Source: a virus
Taxonomy: Duplodnaviria > Caudoviricetes
DNA: 24,792 nt
IMG/VR virus record: IMGVR_UViG_3300014613_000678
Coordinates: 1-24,792 of that record
Direction: 5' to 3' (one strand)
In this document: positions 1-10,292 of the stretch, one piece after another
Numbering within the stretch: the stretch's first letter is position 1
Layout: every line of letters starts with the position of its first letter
Program-made: the position numbers and the translations under genes
Notes under the pieces: model-generated
What the model saw: only the letters and a program-made list of their open reading frames with translations
Databases searched by the model: none
What the model was told of the DNA's origin: nothing

Positions 1-8
1 GAAAAGTG

Positions 9-89
9 ATGTGGTGGATCTTGCCTGTTTATAATCTAATTTGCGTTTTCATTCTCGTTTTGTTATTCAGTTATTGGGGTGCGCGGTGA
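9..89 (+). CDS. 26-aa hydrophobic micropeptide (MWWILPVYNLICVFILVLLFSYWGAR)
   Basis: Hand-translated and below the ORF-track cutoff. Single TM-like segment. Its TGA overlaps GTG at 86 of the next ORF (GTGA). Confidence 0.4.
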   Translation: MWWILPVYNLICVFILVLLFSYWGAR

Positions 90-280
90 GGTGGATTCGG
101 AATATGTCCTGGTTTAAGCGCAGGCGTTTGAAGCGGTTATTGAAGATTCAGATTCGTTTGATTGAGATATATCGGGAAACTGGTTGCTTTGATAACGAGT
201 TGAGGAGTATGGAACATAACATTAAGATAGAAATCGATCGGTTAAGGAAAGATCTTCGGTATCGGGGGCATGATGTTTAA
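86..280 (+). CDS. hypothetical basic phage protein
   Basis: ORF 41..280. The start is more likely GTG 86 (coupled to the upstream stop) or ATG 104. Overlaps the next gene. Confidence 0.55.
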   Translation: MRWIRNMSWFKRRRLKRLLKIQIRLIEIYRETGCFDNELRSMEHNIKIEIDRLRKDLRYRGHDV

Positions 281-653
281 GTACGCCAAGGGCAAGGGTT
301 TTAGTGGCACGGAGGATCATCGTTTGGACAAGATAGATCAGGGGGACGTGTTTGACATGCTGGTGGATCGTTTGGACGAGGAGTTGGGTAAGGACTTATA
401 CCCGGATACCAAGACTTTGAAAAGGGCGGCGGCCGCGGTGCGTTTGCACCAGATCACAATGGGATATCGCGCGGCTTTATGTGCGCATGATTTAAAGCAA
501 CTGGAATATTGGGGGGGCAAGATCGAGGAATTTTGCGTATCCAAACCGAGTGGGATACCCGAGAGTGTCGGCAAAGGTATAGACATGCTCATGGAGATAG
601 TTGCTCAGCAGTTGGGTGAGAGGCGTCGGCAGGAGATTACAGGAGGAGAATAA
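270..653 (+). CDS. hypothetical helical phage protein (small terminase subunit possible but unsupported)
   Basis: 127-aa ORF in the operon direction, coupled on both sides. No recognisable motif. Confidence 0.7.
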   Translation: MMFKYAKGKGFSGTEDHRLDKIDQGDVFDMLVDRLDEELGKDLYPDTKTLKRAAAAVRLHQITMGYRAALCAHDLKQLEYWGGKIEEFCVSKPSGIPESVGKGIDMLMEIVAQQLGERRRQEITGGE

Positions 654-682
654 TGGCAACTATTGATGAAGGAATAATTTAA
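653..682 (+). CDS. 9-aa mini-ORF MATIDEGII
   Basis: AGGAGG at 641-646, ATG at 653 overlapping the upstream TAA, and stop at 680-682 just before the tRNA-like element. Confidence 0.3.
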   Translation: MATIDEGII

Positions 683-683
683 T

Positions 684-757
684 GGGGTCGGGGGCGGTCG
701 GGAATCGCAATCCGAAAGGATATGAAGCAGGTTCGACTCCTGTCTTGGACTCCACCA
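684..757 (+). ncRNA. tRNA-like cloverleaf RNA with Ala identity elements and no anticodon loop
   Basis: Acceptor GGGGTC/GACTCC with G3.U wobble, discriminator A and encoded CCA. D-like stem GCGGT/ATCGC. ATCC-GAAA-GGAT in place of the anticodon arm. T arm GCAGG-TTCGACT-CCTGT. Confidence 0.7.
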
Positions 758-768
758 AAAGAGCGAGG

Positions 769-963
769 ATAGCGGGACTCATTGAGGACTACGAGAAAAA
801 GTATAAACGTGGGAACGTACGGGTGAAAATTCACTTGGACGGCACCTATGAGGTGCAGATACGGAACACTTATATCCCGATTATTGAACCGCGTTTTCCG
901 GTTCAGTTCAATAACCAATGGTCTATAAGGATGAAGTTTAAACCAGAGGATGAATATGTTTAG
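769..963 (+). CDS. hypothetical protein (start uncertain)
   Basis: 3' part of ORF 682..963. The 5' part coincides with the tRNA-like RNA, so the true start is probably downstream (ATA 769, ATT 781 or GTG 823). Confidence 0.4.
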   Translation: MAGLIEDYEKKYKRGNVRVKIHLDGTYEVQIRNTYIPIIEPRFPVQFNNQWSIRMKFKPEDEYV

Positions 964-1162
964 ATACGAATGTGACGGCTGCGACGAAATCATTTACAGC
1001 GAACCGCCTATTACCCTAACCGGCTACGGCCCCGAATGGATAACCCATTTCCATTCCCGTTCATGTTTTGAACGCTGGATAGGGCCTCAACTGTACTCGA
1101 AAGGTGAGGGTGATAACGTCAAGCCGCCCAAGATCCCATGTGTGCCTCTGAGTCAGCAATGA
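950..1162 (+). CDS. small putative zinc-binding protein
   Basis: CDGC ... HFHSRSC pattern typical of small phage Zn-finger proteins. GAGGA upstream of ATG 956. Confidence 0.6.
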   Translation: MNMFRYECDGCDEIIYSEPPITLTGYGPEWITHFHSRSCFERWIGPQLYSKGEGDNVKPPKIPCVPLSQQ

Positions 1163-1308
1163 GAAGCATATTACTCAAGGTTTGGTTTATAATAAATGCC
1201 TTTGTGCTTTTAGGAATTGCGATAGAGCAGAACTACACATCTTATGAGCATGAATGCGTTTTGAACTTGTTGTACGAGAGAATATTTAATGAAAAACCTA
1301 TTGCTTAA
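1159..1308 (+). CDS. 49-aa membrane micropeptide, paralog A
   Basis: Hand-translated MRSILLKVWFIINAFVLLGIAIEQNYTSYEHECVLNLLYERIFNEKPIA. ATGA overlap with the upstream stop. Gapless similarity to the next ORF. Confidence 0.65.
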   Translation: MRSILLKVWFIINAFVLLGIAIEQNYTSYEHECVLNLLYERIFNEKPIA

Positions 1309-1444
1309 TATCTGGTTCTTACTGAATGTGCCGATGGTGCTGGCCGTGGCGATTTGGAAAGGATCTTCTTCGACGGAACTGGACAGCGCACTTGGCAAGT
1401 TGTGTGACGAAGTTTGGAGGAAAACCTATCGAAGCAGCAGTTAA
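1289..1444 (+). CDS. 51-aa membrane micropeptide, paralog B
   Basis: Hand-translated MKNLLLNIWFLLNVPMVLAVAIWKGSSSTELDSALGKLCDEVWRKTYRSSS. 13 of the first 43 residues are identical to paralog A. Confidence 0.65.
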   Translation: MKNLLLNIWFLLNVPMVLAVAIWKGSSSTELDSALGKLCDEVWRKTYRSSS

Positions 1445-2273
1445 GAAATCAAGGGCCGATAAAGTCCAGTTAATAAATGGAACCGGTTTTCCCCTTCCAT
1501 CGGTTGTCGAGTTCAACATATGGGGTGACTGCAACCGTGCCTGCTCGTTTTGTCCCGTATCCACCAAGTATTATGACAGGCGCCCGGGTGGCATGGACTT
1601 CAACCTGTACGCGCAAATCATATACGAACTCATGCACCTGAAATTTAACGGCATGATATTGTTCTCTGCATTTTCCGAGCCGCTCTTGAACCCCACTATA
1701 GTTCAGTTCGTAAGACTCGCCAGAAACTTCCTGCCCTGCCACATCGAGATAAACACCAACGGGGATGCCATCAGGAAATGCCCGGATATACTGCATAACC
1801 TGTTCAAGTCCGGCCTGAATACCGTATCTATAAGTCTATACAGTAACCGTAACGGGCCAAAAGGAGGATTTGACGATCTGATAGAAATGTATTCGCCGGA
1901 TGAAATAAAAATACGCCGGCGGTATTATTCCGAAATGGAAAAGGATTTCGGTACGATACTGTCCAACCGCGGGGGCATATTCTTTTCAGATAAGCGTTTG
2001 CCCCTGAATCGCCAATGTTTCTACCCGTTTTATCAAATCACGATCGACATGGACGGGGACATGCTGTTGTGTCCTCACGACTGGCGCAAGATGCACGTAG
2101 TGGGCAACCTGAAAATGTCCACATTGCGGGAATTATGGACCGGGTCGGAAATGGAACTTACGCGGGCGTTATTGGCGGATAAGAAAAGAGATTTCGAGCC
2201 GTGCGTGTTGTGCGACGTGGACGGCACGCTCATGGGCGAGGGGCATTATAACAGGTGGATGGGTGGAGATTGA
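1428..2273 (+). CDS. radical SAM protein with C-terminal SPASM/twitch domain
   Basis: CxxxCxxC (CNRACSFC), FSEPLL, INTNG, ISLY, and SPASM-like CFYPF...DGDMLLC..DW...VGNL...PCVLCD. The ORF track start is 1326, but that overlaps paralog B. GGAGG at 1416-1420 points to ATC 1428; GTG 1404 is the alternative. Confidence 0.9.
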   Translation: MEAAVKKSRADKVQLINGTGFPLPSVVEFNIWGDCNRACSFCPVSTKYYDRRPGGMDFNLYAQIIYELMHLKFNGMILFSAFSEPLLNPTIVQFVRLARNFLPCHIEINTNGDAIRKCPDILHNLFKSGLNTVSISLYSNRNGPKGGFDDLIEMYSPDEIKIRRRYYSEMEKDFGTILSNRGGIFFSDKRLPLNRQCFYPFYQITIDMDGDMLLCPHDWRKMHVVGNLKMSTLRELWTGSEMELTRALLADKKRDFEPCVLCDVDGTLMGEGHYNRWMGGD

Positions 2274-2276
2274 ACC

Positions 2277-2939
2277 ATGAAAACCGCACTCATAACAGGC
2301 GCATCGGGCGGCATCGGGTTGGCAACCACACATCTGTTTCTCGAGCATGGGTACAGGGTGCTAGCGCATTATAACTCATCTCAAAACCAGTTGCCACTCG
2401 AATCGGATACATTAATTCATTTAGAATCTAATTTTGCCAATAACATGAACCCGGACTATTTCTTTCGGTGGGCAATAAAGCATTTTGGGATAATAGACGT
2501 GCTGGTAAACAGTGCTGGAACACATTGTTTAAATTACGATTATGTCATGGACATGAATCTTCGCGTACCGTTTATTTTGTCCAAGATTGCCATGACTCAC
2601 ATGAAAGAACACGGGGCCGGGTCGATTATAAACATATCGTCTATCGGGGTTAAATACGGTGGCAACCCGGAATTTGTTGTTTACACCATGAGTAAGGCGG
2701 CTCTCGAGGCCATGACGATTTGCCTCGCCAAGGAAGGCGCGCCCAATGTAAGGGTGAATGCGATCAGGGCAGGTATTACCAATACGAACTTTAAGTTTCA
2801 TGACGAAAAACGAATTTATATGGTGCCCATGAAGCGCATGGCGGACCCAAAAGAAATTGCCGAAGCCATTTATTTTCTCGCATCGGACAAGGCTTCTTAT
2901 ATCACCGGGTCTATCCTAACCGTGGCGGGAGGGGAATAA
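2277..2939 (+). CDS. short-chain dehydrogenase/reductase (SDR, FabG-like fold)
   Basis: ITGASGGIG (TGxxxGIG), DVLVNSAG, INISS, catalytic YTMSK (YxxxK), VRVNAI, ASYITG. Confidence 0.93.
   Translation: MKTALITGASGGIGLATTHLFLEHGYRVLAHYNSSQNQLPLESDTLIHLESNFANNMNPDYFFRWAIKHFGIIDVLVNSAGTHCLNYDYVMDMNLRVPFILSKIAMTHMKEHGAGSIINISSIGVKYGGNPEFVVYTMSKAALEAMTICLAKEGAPNVRVNAIRAGITNTNFKFHDEKRIYMVPMKRMADPKEIAEAIYFLASDKASYITGSILTVAGGE
2918..2939 (+). repeat. 22-bp direct repeat, copy 1 (AACCGTGGCGGGAGGGGAATAA)
   Basis: Exact match to 3336-3357. Forms the 3' end of the SDR gene. Confidence 0.95.
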
Positions 2940-2956
2940 AACCAAATTGTGTTAAA

Positions 2957-3331
2957 ATGACAAATTACCAAGAAAAATTTTATAAAGAATTACATTATAC
3001 TTTTATAACCTTTTGCGTTATATTTTTTGCAATAGTCTCAATTTTTGCGCTTTCACATATGTTAACAGTTATAGATTGGGAATATTCGATAGAAAGCGGT
3101 TGGACATGGGGAACTGAAGAAGAATGGATAAAATTACAAGCCGATTATAATGGAAAGTATGGAAAGAATGGATGGCGAGGTAGTTTTATTCCGAGAAGTA
3201 GGGCTGATGGGAATGATTGTATCGAAACTTTTGTTCCCGAAAGAATTACACTTTTTAGAGCTATGTATCTTAATTACGATCAATGGTCACTTAAAACGAT
3301 TATGATAGGTTCTGATAGATATATGGGGTAA
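2957..3331 (+). CDS. AT-rich inserted gene, N-terminally membrane-anchored hypothetical protein
   Basis: 124 aa with one hydrophobic segment (FITFCVIFFAIVSIFAL). Visibly more AT-rich than its flanks and bracketed by the 22-bp repeats. Confidence 0.75.
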   Translation: MTNYQEKFYKELHYTFITFCVIFFAIVSIFALSHMLTVIDWEYSIESGWTWGTEEEWIKLQADYNGKYGKNGWRGSFIPRSRADGNDCIETFVPERITLFRAMYLNYDQWSLKTIMIGSDRYMG

Positions 3332-3335
3332 ACAA

Positions 3336-3357
3336 AACCGTGGCGGGAGGGGAATAA
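3336..3357 (+). repeat. 22-bp direct repeat, copy 2
   Basis: Exact match to 2918-2939. Contains GGAGG (3346-3350) and ATA (3354) in frame with the terminase. Confidence 0.95.
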
Positions 3358-4973
3358 CGGATACCAAAGACAAGGTTAGCGAACTCTTAACATGCGGGTC
3401 GGACTTCTCGTATTGGTTGGCTAACTACGCGTATATCGAGGATAAGGTGCAGGGCGGGGCGATTAAGTTCAAGCTGTGGCCGAGCCAGTTACGCATCCTG
3501 CCCCTGTTCCTGTCCGCGGTCTATATATTCATCCTGAAAGCCAGACAGTTAGGTTTAACCTGGCTTACGGCTGCATACTGCCTGTGGTGCGCAATCTTTA
3601 ACCAGAATTACGAGGTGGTGGTAATATCGGCTAACGAGATGCTGGCAATTAAGTTCCTGGACCGCGTGAAGTTCATATTCGATAAATTACCCGACTGGAT
3701 GAAACCGCATGTGTATAAACGTACCACACAGCTCATGCACTTCGGGATCGAAGAGAAAGACACCAAAGGCAATATGCTTATAAACGGTCTAAACAGTATT
3801 ATCCAGAGCTTAACCACAACTCCCAAGGGCGCGCAGTCCATGACGGTTAATCTGTTAGTTTTGGACGAAGCTGCTCTGATAGAAAACATCAAGTCCATCT
3901 GGCGCTCATCCAAACCCGGGGTGGACTCCGCACAAGGCAGAATCATTGTTATATCGAACGCCATCAAGGACGGTATCGGTTGGCCCTGGTTCCGGCAGAA
4001 CTTTACCAAAGCGGTCAGAGGATTGGCTGGAAAGATCCAATACTTGTTCATGTCCTGGATGGATCACCCTAATCGAGGCCCGGACTTCATCACGCAGCAA
4101 AAACTCGAGGGCATGGATGACGACGATATATCCATGCACTATCCGGCAACCGTGGATGAAGCCATAGAGGCCCTGACAGGATCGTATTTCGGCAAGGTGC
4201 TGATACGTCATAAGGACTTTAAGCAGGGGAAACGTGGGTATCTGGAATACAATGACGAAGGCGGTATGAGGTTTGTCGAGAAAAACAATGGGTTAATGGA
4301 GGTTTGGGAAGAACCGGATGGTGAGGGTTGGCGCAACCGTTATTGTATATTCTCGGATGTGGCCGAAGGACTCGGCCTGTCAGAATCGGTTGCTTACATA
4401 TTCGACCGGGCGGAAAACAGGTTTATCGTTAAGTCTTCCAGCAGCAAAATAGACGCTGACCTGTGGGCACTGGAACTCATTATGCTGGCCCATTGGTGCG
4501 GGGATACACCCATGATAGCGCCTGAACGAAGCGGTGCGGGTCAGTCTACCATATTCAGACTAAGACGCGAAAAATACCCGCGTATATACCGTGACCGCAA
4601 GGAAGACCGTACGAAAAAGCGCGTGGGGTCTAATTACGGGTGGACGGAATCCAGAGATAATAAGCGTCTGTTGTCAAATGCGCTCCGGGCGTACCTGCGG
4701 GACAGTAAAGAGTCCGTACCGGATGGGCAGTTAATCGACCAATGTTCGACATATATCCGTCACCCAGACGGGCATTTAGGCAAGGAAGACGAGACGAAAA
4801 AAGATGATTGCGTGATTGCCGCCGGGGGGTGTATGATATTGCACAGCACGTTACCGGACGCTGAGCAACTTTGGGATACAAAAGATAGGTACATAATAAC
4901 AGCCATCGGCAGGAACATCACCCGAATGCCCTGGGGATCGACAGGTTCGACCAGAGATCCCTGGGTGGAATAA
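3354..4973 (+). CDS. terL: terminase large subunit (ATPase plus RNase H-like nuclease)
   Basis: Adenine-binding LWPSQ, Walker A LKARQLGLT, Walker B LLVLDEAA, coupling ISN, nuclease acidic motifs FSDVAEG and DDCVIA. The ORF track start is TTG 3417, but the frame is open upstream and encodes the typical ELLTCGSDFSYWLANY N-terminal helix. Confidence 0.95.
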   Translation: MTDTKDKVSELLTCGSDFSYWLANYAYIEDKVQGGAIKFKLWPSQLRILPLFLSAVYIFILKARQLGLTWLTAAYCLWCAIFNQNYEVVVISANEMLAIKFLDRVKFIFDKLPDWMKPHVYKRTTQLMHFGIEEKDTKGNMLINGLNSIIQSLTTTPKGAQSMTVNLLVLDEAALIENIKSIWRSSKPGVDSAQGRIIVISNAIKDGIGWPWFRQNFTKAVRGLAGKIQYLFMSWMDHPNRGPDFITQQKLEGMDDDDISMHYPATVDEAIEALTGSYFGKVLIRHKDFKQGKRGYLEYNDEGGMRFVEKNNGLMEVWEEPDGEGWRNRYCIFSDVAEGLGLSESVAYIFDRAENRFIVKSSSSKIDADLWALELIMLAHWCGDTPMIAPERSGAGQSTIFRLRREKYPRIYRDRKEDRTKKRVGSNYGWTESRDNKRLLSNALRAYLRDSKESVPDGQLIDQCSTYIRHPDGHLGKEDETKKDDCVIAAGGCMILHSTLPDAEQLWDTKDRYIITAIGRNITRMPWGSTGSTRDPWVE

Positions 4974-6134: not shown

Positions 6135-8120
6135 ATGCCTGAAAACGAAACATTAGAACTAATTTACCAACGGTTCGATAAAGCCAAAGACGCCCAGGCA
6201 CGCAAGAGCTTCGAGACCGATATGGAAATATCCAAGCGGGCGTTCAAGGGCCATCCGTTCAGCGACACGCAAGAAACCAGTATGAAAGACTCCGGCTTGC
6301 CGGTTGTCAAGGTATCCCGCGGTACAACCAACGCCCTTCGGTTTGCATCCATCCTGACAGCCTCTCGACCGGAACTAAAAGCGGTTGCGAAAGGGCGCGG
6401 GGACGGTGGCGTGGCGACCCTTATAAGCAGGGCGTACCAGAAAGTATGGGAGCAGAACCGGGCGGGCAAGATTAACTTCCGCGTGGTGTTAGCGCTTGTG
6501 CGGGAAGGTCTGAGCCATTTCAATGTGAAGACCGAACGGTACGGGTTGGCCGGGGACGTGCGTATCAAGATATCCAAGCTGGACGCCAAGAAAGTTGTTT
6601 ACGACCCTGAAACGTCCGAGGACAACCTGGAAGACTGGCGCTATCGCATAGTTTACCGAGCCATATCCAAGGAAGAGGCGAAAGACTTATACAAACTGAC
6701 AGATGAAGAACTTTATTACGAAACTGTCGTTAAACCGGAAGATGATGATAGCGCGGGCGACCATGATAGCAAACATGGCGGAAGTTATGATGATGCCCCG
6801 GGTGGGCAGAAGAAAGAAACTAAGCGTATCGTGTGGGAGCTGGAATATTGGGCAAAGCGCAAATATAAGGTAAAATACCTGCTTGATATGGACACGCTTC
6901 AATCCATACCGCTTGCGTCCGAACCCACCAAAGCGGAAAAGGAAGCGCTGCTTCAGTCCGACCGTTACAAGGAAATCACGGTAATCGAGTGCGACCTGAA
7001 ATACTGTCTGGTATGCGGGAAGAAAATCGTGGTTGATGTGAACAATCCGCACGGCAAAGACCAGTTATCCGAGCCTGTAGATCCTATTGTGGATGTGGTG
7101 AACATACCCATCGGGGAAACGTACCCGCGCGGCAATATGTTCTTTGCGGACGGCCCCCTGCAGGAGATATCAAAGCGCCGTGCCCAGTCAATCGCGGTGG
7201 TGTCGGCCACACTTGGCAGCCCCATTCTTGTGAAAAAGGGTTCTGGTGTGGATTTACAAGCGTGGCGTAAGAACCTCTCTAGGCCACGTGAAATCCTTGA
7301 AGCTGATTGGGATGACCCCGGTGACAAACCCAGTACGATCTATCAGAACATCCCGGATATGTCACGTATATTCATGCTGGAAGATCGTGCACACAGGGAC
7401 CTGGACGATGTGTTCAACCTGTCCCCGGTTTTAAAGGGAGAGGCCGAAACAGGGCGCATGTCCGGCAGACTGGCGTCCATGTTGCGCGAGTTCGGCATGG
7501 AAGGTAACTCGTACCTGCTGGCATCTATGGAAGAAGCCTTCCGGCGCCTGGGTGTGTGCATAGTCGTAATGGCTCTTAATGAATGGCCGTTTCATTATTG
7601 GCAACGCTTGGTCGAAGATGAGGATATGGACGAGCAGGGCAAGCCATTACCCAGTATCGTAACCGCATTGAAAAAACTGGAAGCCAAGGACGTGTCTATC
7701 ATAGATTACGATATTGGGATACGTTCAGGCTCTTCGCTGCCTTCGAGCAGGATGGCTCGCCTGGATTTCGCAGTTGAACTCTCACGCGAACCTGTCCATC
7801 CGGATGCTGTGTATGATGTGGAAGCGGTTCTGGCGTATATAGACGATCCGCAGGCAGAGGGCGTTTTAAGGCGCAGGGGTAAATTGAAACAAGCCATGAA
7901 CCAGATGCAGCAGATGGGTGGTGAGATGGAGAACATGGCGAAACAACTTGACAGCATGACCGCTGATATGCAACAGAAAGATGAAGAGCTTGACAAAATT
8001 AAGATTCAGCACGTGGAGGATATGGGCAAGCAGAAATGGCGTTACGAAATCACACTTGAAAAACTAAATCTACGGTTAGCGGCCATGAGGGAAAAGAAAC
8101 AGCAGGCGAAGTCGAAATGA
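6135..8120 (+). CDS. portal protein, P22-like with C-terminal coiled-coil barrel
   Basis: 661 aa, positioned between terL and scaffold/capsid. P22-type features: VVYDP, GPLQEISKRRAQ, LKGE...SGR, YDIGI..G.S.PSSR, and a Q/M-rich helical tail. Confidence 0.88.
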   Translation: MPENETLELIYQRFDKAKDAQARKSFETDMEISKRAFKGHPFSDTQETSMKDSGLPVVKVSRGTTNALRFASILTASRPELKAVAKGRGDGGVATLISRAYQKVWEQNRAGKINFRVVLALVREGLSHFNVKTERYGLAGDVRIKISKLDAKKVVYDPETSEDNLEDWRYRIVYRAISKEEAKDLYKLTDEELYYETVVKPEDDDSAGDHDSKHGGSYDDAPGGQKKETKRIVWELEYWAKRKYKVKYLLDMDTLQSIPLASEPTKAEKEALLQSDRYKEITVIECDLKYCLVCGKKIVVDVNNPHGKDQLSEPVDPIVDVVNIPIGETYPRGNMFFADGPLQEISKRRAQSIAVVSATLGSPILVKKGSGVDLQAWRKNLSRPREILEADWDDPGDKPSTIYQNIPDMSRIFMLEDRAHRDLDDVFNLSPVLKGEAETGRMSGRLASMLREFGMEGNSYLLASMEEAFRRLGVCIVVMALNEWPFHYWQRLVEDEDMDEQGKPLPSIVTALKKLEAKDVSIIDYDIGIRSGSSLPSSRMARLDFAVELSREPVHPDAVYDVEAVLAYIDDPQAEGVLRRRGKLKQAMNQMQQMGGEMENMAKQLDSMTADMQQKDEELDKIKIQHVEDMGKQKWRYEITLEKLNLRLAAMREKKQQAKSK

Positions 8121-9290: not shown

Positions 9291-10292
9291 ATGGCTGTAA
9301 CAGCATTTGCAACCGGCGACACGCTGACCGAAAAAGCGTGGAGCAAAAAGGTAATAAAACTCGGTATGGACCGTTCATATTTTGAACAGAACGGCTATGT
9401 CGGGGAAGACAAAAACAACATCATCATTCGATATACCGAGCTGGACAAACGCAAGGGGGACGTGATTTATCTCCCGGCATCCGGGGAACTCACCGGGGGC
9501 GGCGTATCCGGCGATTCGATTATGGAGGACAACGAGGAAGCGCTCCCGACTTATGACGAGAGTGTGACCATAGACCAGATCCGTAACGCGGTTCGTATTG
9601 AGGGCGCAATGACCGAGCAGCGCACATCAATCGAGTTGCGGCGTATCGCACGGGACGCGCTGGCCGATTGGCTGGCTAACAAAATCACCGAAGATACGTT
9701 TAGCGCGTTAAACGGGTCTCCTACTCGCGCATTATTCGGTGGGGACGCGACCACCAAGGCCACCATTGAGGCCGGTGACTACATGACCACCACGCTTTTA
9801 AGCAAGGCTTCCACGATTGCCGAAAAGAACACCCCGGAACTCAAACCGGTCACAAAGGGCGGTGCCCAGGTGTTCGTGTGTGTGTGCGCACCGGATTCAG
9901 CGTATGACCTTAAAGTGTCAGACTCCGTGTGGGGTCAGGCGCAACGTGAGGCCATGCCGCGCGGTTCAACCAATAATCTGTTCAAAAACGCCTACGGCAT
10001 GTGGGACGGTGTGGTGATTCAGAAACATAAATATATCACCGTATCATCCGTGTTTGGAGCCAGCGCCAACCTGACCGGGTCTGAAAATCTATTCTTAGGC
10101 CGTGGTTCCGGTGCATGGGCTTTTGCCAAAAACAAGTTCTGGAAAGAAAAAACTTTTGACTACGCGAACTCCCCAGGGGTATGTATCGGAGCGATTTATG
10201 GCGTTATCAAACTGGTTTTCAATTCCGAGGACAACGGTGTGATTTCTATTGTCACGTATCGCACCAATAACGCTGAAGCTACTTACGCATAA
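9291..10292 (+). CDS. major capsid protein, N4-gp56/DUF4043-like (HK97 fold)
   Basis: EL.K.KGD.I...L.G.GV.GD..MEDNEE.L......V.IDQ.R.AV...G.M.EQRT...LR..AR..L.DW pattern, plus G.WDGV and E.FDY.N. Follows the scaffold. Confidence 0.92.
   Translation: MAVTAFATGDTLTEKAWSKKVIKLGMDRSYFEQNGYVGEDKNNIIIRYTELDKRKGDVIYLPASGELTGGGVSGDSIMEDNEEALPTYDESVTIDQIRNAVRIEGAMTEQRTSIELRRIARDALADWLANKITEDTFSALNGSPTRALFGGDATTKATIEAGDYMTTTLLSKASTIAEKNTPELKPVTKGGAQVFVCVCAPDSAYDLKVSDSVWGQAQREAMPRGSTNNLFKNAYGMWDGVVIQKHKYITVSSVFGASANLTGSENLFLGRGSGAWAFAKNKFWKEKTFDYANSPGVCIGAIYGVIKLVFNSEDNGVISIVTYRTNNAEATYA

Follow-up and report, generated by a model that had tools for sequence, protein, structure and literature searches.

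A phage-encoded, anticodon-less putative alanine-acceptor RNA that resembles the TLD of tmRNA and has a stretched acceptor helix

Next to the likely small terminase gene of a phage lies a 74-nt unit (positions 684 to 757) that carries the marks for charging with alanine and has no anticodon, which raises the question of what such an RNA is and what it could do for the phage. The window, by which we mean the whole stretch of DNA analysed, is a 24.8-kb virus record (24,792 nt) that is ~61% complete, and the analysed runs containing it are groundwater or unlabelled metagenomes. Having neither an anticodon nor a tag frame, the element does not decode and does not tag. The reading that we prefer, with a probability of about 0.42, is a message-less phage offshoot of the tRNA-like domain (TLD) of tmRNA, the ribosome-rescue RNA of bacteria, with a lengthened acceptor, which would serve, once alanylated, as a dead-end sink for the host rescue protein SmpB.

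Anatomy of the element and its genomic setting

The features of the locus, in positions of the window, are as follows.

270..653, + strand: likely terminase small subunit; in L296 a 32% identical homologue immediately precedes the large terminase
653..682, + strand: 9-codon mini-ORF, overlapping the stop of ORF 270-653
678..683, + strand: AU-rich 5' leader, also in the second copy
682..963, + strand: 93-codon orphan ORF that overlaps the element and shows no conservation there
684..757, + strand: anticodon-less Ala-acceptor RNA, TLD-like, with stretched acceptor helix; 74 nt, second copy known
684..693, + strand: acceptor 5' strand with G1, G2 and G3 (= 686)
684-695, + strand: imperfect tandem hexamer; 684-689 are surplus relative to TLD-only RNAs
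694..708, + strand: D region, either a 4-bp D stem with a 7-nt loop or an open tmRNA-type D loop
701-707, + strand: GGAAUCG motif, inside the D region
709..723, + strand: GAAA-capped hairpin in place of an anticodon arm or of tmRNA helix P2
724..726, + strand: connector GAA ahead of the T stem
727..743, + strand: T arm, 5 bp, UUCGACU loop
744..757, + strand: acceptor 3' strand with U751 of G3.U70, discriminator A754 and encoded CCA (755-757)
1326..2939, + strand: accessory genes for radical SAM/SPASM and SDR proteins, placed between the two terminase genes
3417..4973, + strand: terminase large subunit, followed by a P22-like portal (6135-8120) and the major capsid (9291-10292)

The element begins 1 nt past the stop of the mini-ORF and is the first item of an accessory stretch of ~2.7 kb between the two terminase genes, which holds the radical SAM/SPASM and SDR genes and small orphans. 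ORF 270-653 matched no family in Pfam, PHROGs or NCBIfam and is called the likely small terminase because its homologue adjoins the large terminase in L296; the radical SAM/SPASM and SDR pair matched no named subfamily at its cut-off. An exact 22-nt direct repeat (2918-2939 and 3336-3357) at the end of the SDR gene flanks ORF 2957-3331 and is the footprint of a cassette insertion. Promoter and terminator scans gave scores no higher than shuffles. The window contains no SmpB gene, integrase matches were absent from it in Pfam and PHROGs (in a record ~61% complete), and searches of 32 window proteins against Pfam and PHROGs and of 26 against NCBIfam recognised no tRNA-dependent or alanine-using transferase.

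The lower part of the acceptor is formed by G684-C753, G685-C752, G686.U751, G687-C750, U688-A749 and C689-G748. Past a G690xG747 mismatch it continues with G691.U746, G692.U745 and G693-C744 to a total of 10 bp, which together with the 5-bp T stem (727-731/739-743) gives a 15-bp branch. The variable loop has 5 nt, the D stem would pair 694-697 with 705-708, and the hairpin pairs 710-713 with 718-721 and can be extended to 709-723 with A722 bulged. Bases 745-747 are a 3-nt insert relative to both TLD-only RNAs and tRNA-Ala, and the surplus 5' bases 684-689 furnish the longer acceptor as well as the 5' strand of the D stem. The leader contains the mini-ORF stop (680-682), and its last two bases open the ATG at 682. 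The original prediction, a 74-nt four-arm cloverleaf, was right in its parts (G1-C, G2-C, G3.U, A, CCA, T arm and GAAA hairpin are present as described), while the four-arm fold itself is one of two or three plausible folds. The acceptor can indeed be extended as had been proposed, though 10 bp is the better drawing than 9 bp with a bulge: the cloverleaf with the 10-bp acceptor is more stable (−25.6 kcal/mol) than the one with 9 bp and G747 bulged (−21.8 kcal/mol). A descriptor combining the T arm, the alanine marks, six paired acceptor bases and CCA occurs once in the window and in 0/2000 order-1 Markov windows; the bare T arm occurs in 779/2000.

For the isolated element, ViennaRNA prefers a rod (−29.3 kcal/mol; shuffle z −2.14), and in the context 640-800 an upstream-paired fold wins, with the acceptor stem at P=0.01. 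These predictions weaken the cloverleaf without refuting it, since the same program loses the T arm in 72/824 ordinary tRNAs. The D stem, which would mask U705-G707, wins over the open loop by 3.7 kcal/mol, and a true TLD-only member, L426, is likewise predicted with a D stem. A 7-bp acceptor is possible only with a 3-nt bulge (−14.7 versus −21.9 kcal/mol). Two other registers were considered and rejected. The one that starts at 687, with a U discriminator and the first CCA, is less stable (−18.2 versus −25.6 kcal/mol), and the second copy keeps the last CCA. Furthermore, among 329 G-starting phage tRNAs the leader bases at −2/−1 are AT in 122 and GG in 3, which favours 684 over 687 as +1 and makes the ATG at 682 the expected by-product of a tRNA-type leader. 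The register from 690 reaches only −9.6 kcal/mol as a present fold and is likely the ancestral register. In the predicted precursor, the RBS of the mini-ORF (640-645) can pair with the 3' strand of the T stem (737-742), and this pairing could couple translation to folding or be due to chance.

Relationship to tmRNA and tRNA-Ala

Two detectors suggested with the original prediction gave little: ARAGORN called 0 genes in the window, and Rfam returned nothing over 1-4000. At E values up to 10, Rfam over 660-790 gave a single family, tmRNA (RF00023, positions 690-757), at 4 bits (E 5.6) against a cut-off of 47; in this alignment 17 nt stand for 326 model positions, and there is no tag frame and there are no pseudoknots. 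Rfam mt-tmRNA had no match over 1-4000 or 660-790.

A better yardstick came from an IMG/VR pattern scan for short alanine acceptors with a normal 7/5 branch, which gave 104 loci, 12 of them tested against Rfam. Ten of the 12 are 62-82-nt units scoring 41-73 bits on RF00023, all from uncultured phages: L417:234-300 (+), L426:1501-1564 (−), L429:1501-1567 (−), L432:650-718 (−), L438:366-427 (−), L456:1501-1568 (−), L461:1501-1567 (−), L464:1480-1561 (+), L475:1501-1570 (+) and L482:37-102 (−). The other two were left out of this TLD set, L423 because it belongs to the end of a complete tmRNA and L427 because Rfam had no match for it. BLAST of two of the units against cultured phages found no record covering 80%. 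In L417, L429 and L461 an upstream ORF enters the RNA, and a 239-codon ORF begins 7-8 nt past the CCA. Nine units were aligned and modelled, with L464 and the RNA of Mycobacterium phage DS6A held out. In the nine, covariation is seen in the acceptor, P2 and T stems, with 20 cells changed on both sides (0/500 shuffles), and the acceptor has 7 bp in 9/9, against 10 bp (one mismatch) in the element.

Aligned with MAFFT, the element is in register with the TLD-only RNAs from 690 on, apart from the insert 745-747, and has six extra bases at its 5' end. The motif GGAnUCG plus connector A is present in the window, in 4/11 TLD-only RNAs and in 1/826 ARAGORN tRNAs, and a looser form in 9/11 and 11/826, respectively, in a test that was framed after the match had been seen and with a TLD set chosen partly by the motif. 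At 703, 705, 706, 707 and 725 the element carries A, U, C, G and A, positions that we take to correspond to A15, U17, C18, G19 and A334 of tmRNA. These tmRNA bases are the ones reported as contacts of E. coli SmpB (PMC8363625), and the letters are the same. Two positions invariant in the TLD-only alignment are changed, with C708 in place of A and A726 in place of C; the connector is GAC or CAC in 11/11 TLD-only RNAs and GAA in the element.

Model scores do not decide the matter. On the TLD-only model the element reaches 28.1 bits; the two held-out TLD-only RNAs score 55.7 and 53.2, and five tRNA-Ala controls lie at 23.5-33.1. On the tRNA-Ala model, which aligns it end to end from 684 with the full D stem included, it reaches 32.3 bits; here six held-out tRNA-Ala score 44.6-59.1, and five TLD-only RNAs lie at 34.8-46.6. 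By score, the element is placed in neither family. The motif evidence points to a tmRNA ancestry, and judged by its letters the element looks more like a tmRNA TLD than like tRNA-Ala. The name given to it at the outset, a tRNA-Ala mimic, thus undersells the tmRNA motifs, and the 15-bp branch departs from tRNA and tmRNA alike.

A second copy and the search for relatives

A 164-nt contig of metatranscriptome run X7 matches 678-757 without gaps and then continues with 84 unrelated bases. In the same run, 170 unrelated bases lead into 678-707 on a further contig, and yet another one follows the window's own upstream sequence as far as 707. The independent DNA run X6 has the window's letters across 702-904. 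The second copy is identical in 77/80 bases, its identity stops at the last A of the CCA, and its flanks differ from those of the window. The replacement of the anticodon arm (4 bp plus GAAA) is seen in it as well. Its three changes are A709G, C712T and G719A: C712-G719 becomes U-A, a compensatory change, and 709-723 is still paired, as G.U, so none of the three differences breaks a pair. Three random changes in 80 bases would touch both sides of one of the 22 pairs with a probability of 0.021. The compensated pair does not choose between cloverleaf, open-D form and rod, because the hairpin is common to all three. The earlier impression that the hairpin is "selected rather than decayed" gains one compensatory and one pairing-neutral change from a second copy that counts as a single event; as its contigs stem from an RNA run, they carry no readable RNA ends or expression, and the absence of cover beyond 757 in run X7 has no evidential weight. 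The hairpin was also considered as the leftover of a type II variable arm (match to a T5-like tRNA-Asn, E 0.04); the tmRNA motif speaks against this, as does the distance of 5 nt that separates the hairpin from the T stem.

Relatives with a long acceptor were sought by exact patterns or a one-sequence model, by which diverged relatives can be missed. An exact-pattern scan of IMG/VR listed at least 120 loci from 27/64 parts, and no long-acceptor relative was among them; the 57 listed loci of the 10-nt gap class were mostly ordinary tRNAs with discriminator U plus CCACCA. A second IMG/VR pattern listed at least 120 loci from 2/64 parts, mostly type II tRNA variable arms and no relative, and three others gave 53, 18 and 40 loci, again with no long-acceptor relative. 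Of the 8 loci in metagenome contigs, 6 were chance matches and the others were L334 and L329, the latter being the window's own record; all 25 loci in GTDB genomes were chance, and blastn against phages and plasmids found no long-acceptor relative. Among relatives of the terminase, the element was present in 0/8 in a single-protein terminase scan, the 16 terminase-relative loci held no long-acceptor relative, and in whole records the one-sequence model found it in 0/5 and the TLD-only model gave matches in 2/5, neither of which is this element.

Several other units came to light in these searches. L334:336-410 (−) also lacks an anticodon and shares the 10+5 spacing, and its 9-bp acceptor comes with G3.U70 and ACCA; it is built from a tandem duplicate with two T-loop motifs, adjoins a REP-like hairpin and is probably unrelated to the element. 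L229:287-341 (−), L427:1501-1563 (+) and L321:1001-1073 (+) are short tRNA-like units that combine a GNRA-capped hairpin with a T arm and show no recognisable anticodon arm. Phage tRNA-Ala(UGC) with one extra, bulged base in the acceptor 3' strand is recurrent (L004, L012, L013, L017, L035, L043, L058, L063, L076, L077 and L100). The terminase relative G004 has a lone tmRNA 3' end (L509:1501-1537, −) near a tyrosine-integrase-like ORF (1965-3053, −), likely an attachment site at ssrA. By this lone 3' end beside an integrase-like gene, the lineage does meet tmRNA genes, and the finding hints at bacterial hosts and at tmRNA ends being within reach.

Possible function, rival explanations and comparison with known systems

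AlaRS is reported to need only G3.U70, A73 and neighbouring pairs and to charge mini- and microhelices (PMC9976931). In tmRNA, G3.U70 is described as invariant, and the deformed D arm binds SmpB (PMC3985003). That the RNA is chargeable with alanine and unable to decode, as originally proposed, fits the sequence and the identity rules of AlaRS. In our model, the + strand transcript of the terminase region would include the element. RNase P would cut between U683 and G684, as the leader statistics suggest; such a cut would spare the upstream stop and fall within the ATG of the orphan frame. Trimming at the other end would stop at the encoded CCA (757), where the second copy ends as well. The host AlaRS could then charge the RNA via G3.U70 and A73, and SmpB may bind the elbow of D loop and connector, where the contact bases are kept. 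The acceptor/T branch is given as 12 bp in tRNA and tmRNA and 13 bp in tRNA-Sec, and one extra acceptor pair in tRNA-Sec is reported to lower EF-Tu binding ~100-fold (PMC7609411); a 15-bp branch would likely weaken EF-Tu delivery and A-site fit. The RNA of phage DS6A, little more than a TLD, is reported to inhibit tmRNA, perhaps by titrating SmpB (PMC4131195, PMC11915505), and here too infection might be accompanied by reduced trans-translation tagging. Among the three ideas put forward with the original prediction, a tmRNA-like domain is thus the favoured one; for an alanine donor, no alanine-using transferase was recognised in the window.

It is imaginable that the RNA works independently of SmpB, as a four-arm cloverleaf that is charged with alanine and serves as a decoy for AlaRS, EF-Tu or defence proteins that sense or cut tRNA, or as an alanine carrier for a non-ribosomal transferase. 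The advantage of the D stem over the open loop (3.7 kcal/mol) supports this, the tRNA-Ala model aligns the element end to end with a full D stem (32.3 bits), the surplus 5' bases yield both the longer acceptor and the D-stem 5' strand, and the GNRA cap leaves no anticodon loop to cut. However, the tmRNA-type motif is found in only 1/826 tRNAs, the U8/A9 linker is absent, no tRNA-dependent transferase was recognised among the proteins of this ~61% complete record, and the literature search returned no title on such a decoy, so that we consider it unlikely. Decay is the next reading to be weighed: a TLD-only tmRNA gene whose 7/5 geometry was broken by a 6-base duplication and a 3-base insertion, leaving an inert RNA. 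The tandem hexamer 684-695, the insert 745-747, the G.G mismatch and the loss of two invariant bases are in line with this, as are the rod and upstream-paired folds of ViennaRNA and the existence of only one other copy (77/80 identical), with none in terminase relatives. Yet duplication and insert are complementary and produce a longer, stabler helix (−25.6 versus −9.6 kcal/mol for the 690 register), the three differences of the second copy break no pair and compensate one, and the unit was retained while both flanks were exchanged; an inert relic likewise appears unlikely to us.

Two further readings take the RNA as a means to another end or as incidental. As a cis-acting processing signal of the kind known from plant mitochondrial t-elements, it would cut the small-terminase message from the accessory genes, and charging would be incidental. 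Its place suits such a role, as it follows a stop codon by 1 nt where the likely small terminase gives way to a variable cassette. An open frame appears to end at the same place upstream of the second copy, and the flanks are exchangeable; moreover, cleavage at 684 would divide the start codon (ATG) of frame 682-963. On the other side, G3.U70, A73 and the SmpB motif are all needless for processing, the small terminase of L296 runs into the large terminase without such an element, and a 15-bp branch does not fit the length that RNase P usually measures. Arabidopsis t-elements, in the available part of the source, have no encoded CCA and are not aminoacylated (PMC11658184). We regard a mere processing signal as improbable. 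Finally, the fold might be incidental to the start of a protein gene, 682-963, or to the remnant of an attachment site in a host tRNA or tmRNA gene. The chain of stop-start overlaps (270-653, 653-682, 682-963) and the likely use of tmRNA 3' ends as attachment sites in this lineage speak for it. The original prediction had named conservation of frame 682-963 as a protein as evidence against an RNA, and the search came out negative: the sole candidate homologue (1/1) was the frame itself, with no usable Atlas match, all three differences of the second copy (3/3) alter an amino acid, and the frame diverges past 757. Furthermore, the descriptor occurred in 0/2000 random windows, and both the 5' and the 3' half are present in a window that has no integrase match. 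The protein-gene or attachment-site reading is therefore largely refuted and highly improbable.

The preferred reading, an SmpB sink, would extend a mode of interference for which the accessible papers rest on one phage RNA, that of DS6A. The 2025 tmRNA database, in its accessible part, has 9 standard no-CDS genes and 79 phage sequences among 97,179 (PMC11915505), so that the 10 TLD-only units in uncultured phages are about as many as those 9, with possible overlap. The literature search, mainly of open-access papers, found no phage RNA with a stretched acceptor; the supplementary tables of PMC11915505 may bear on this. It is tempting to go further and to assume that phages widely use message-less tmRNA domains against host ribosome rescue, and that here a duplication and a matching insertion lengthened the acceptor by 3 bp, giving an alanylated, SmpB-holding, ribosome-excluded RNA missed by every standard tRNA/tmRNA detector; this wider picture is doubtful. 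If the element is inert, it is a curiosity; if it is a working SmpB trap, it is an RNA anti-trans-translation factor that standard tRNA/tmRNA detectors miss. Since a 74-nt RNA is cheap to make, the question is directly testable, and the RNA would also probe how far a longer acceptor arm is compatible with AlaRS, RNase P, EF-Tu and SmpB.

Among known RNAs, bacterial and phage tRNA-Ala shares G1-C72, G2-C71, G3.U70, A73, CCA and the T arm with the element, as well as a possible 4-bp D stem with a GG loop and the 5-nt variable loop; the element differs in having no 5-bp anticodon stem with a 7-nt loop, no U8/N9 linker, a 10-bp acceptor and no ARAGORN call. Allo-tRNAs (8/4, 9/3) and tRNA-Sec also have a lengthened acceptor, and some allo-tRNAs carry G3:U70 and are reported to accept alanine (PMC5389517, PMC7609411). 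As described, however, their branch measures 12 or 13 bp, they carry an anticodon and a long variable arm, and they are translation-capable (PMC5389517, PMC7609411), and those with G3:U70 retain the 12-bp branch and the anticodon (PMC5389517), whereas the element has 15 bp, no anticodon and no long variable arm. Plant mitochondrial t-elements are, like it, tRNA-like units at a gene border that could direct cuts by RNase P and RNase Z (PMC11658184); in contrast to them, it has an encoded CCA and the full alanine set. Phage T5 RNA2 (L121:505-629), annotated as "tRNA-like stable RNA with unknown functions", is similar in the T arm and the first bases of the acceptor 3' strand (22/24, E 6, not significant) and, by inspection, likewise has an acceptor of more than 7 bp (8 bp), but it has 125 nt and no G3.U70. 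An attP at a tRNA or tmRNA gene is a 3' fragment next to an integrase, whereas the element has both halves and no integrase match.

The closest parallels lie among message-less tmRNAs. The CDS-less tmRNAs of jakobid and oomycete mitochondria and of Mallomonadaceae plastids are described as alanine-acceptor TLDs without a message, ~65-75 nt long (PMC3985003, PMC11915505); according to the accessible parts of these sources, they are mostly permuted and are thought to act with SmpB, not against it. The DS6A RNA is phage-encoded and short like the element, with G3.U70, A73, a T arm, no anticodon and no tag frame, and in both a short helix replaces the message domain, next to a tmRNA-type D-loop motif and a connector A. 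It has 83 nt (L364:28478-28560), a 7/5 branch, intact UCGA and CAC, and 43.2 bits on RF00023; in the element the branch is 10/5, the two motifs read UCGC and GAA, a D stem is possible, the GNRA-capped helix has 4-5 bp, and the score is 4 bits. In sum, the element departs from the TLD-only tmRNAs in the 7-bp acceptor, in two invariant bases and in model score, and is no member of them, but it may, in our tentative view, work like them as a sink for SmpB, and it adds a form with a 15-bp acceptor/T branch.
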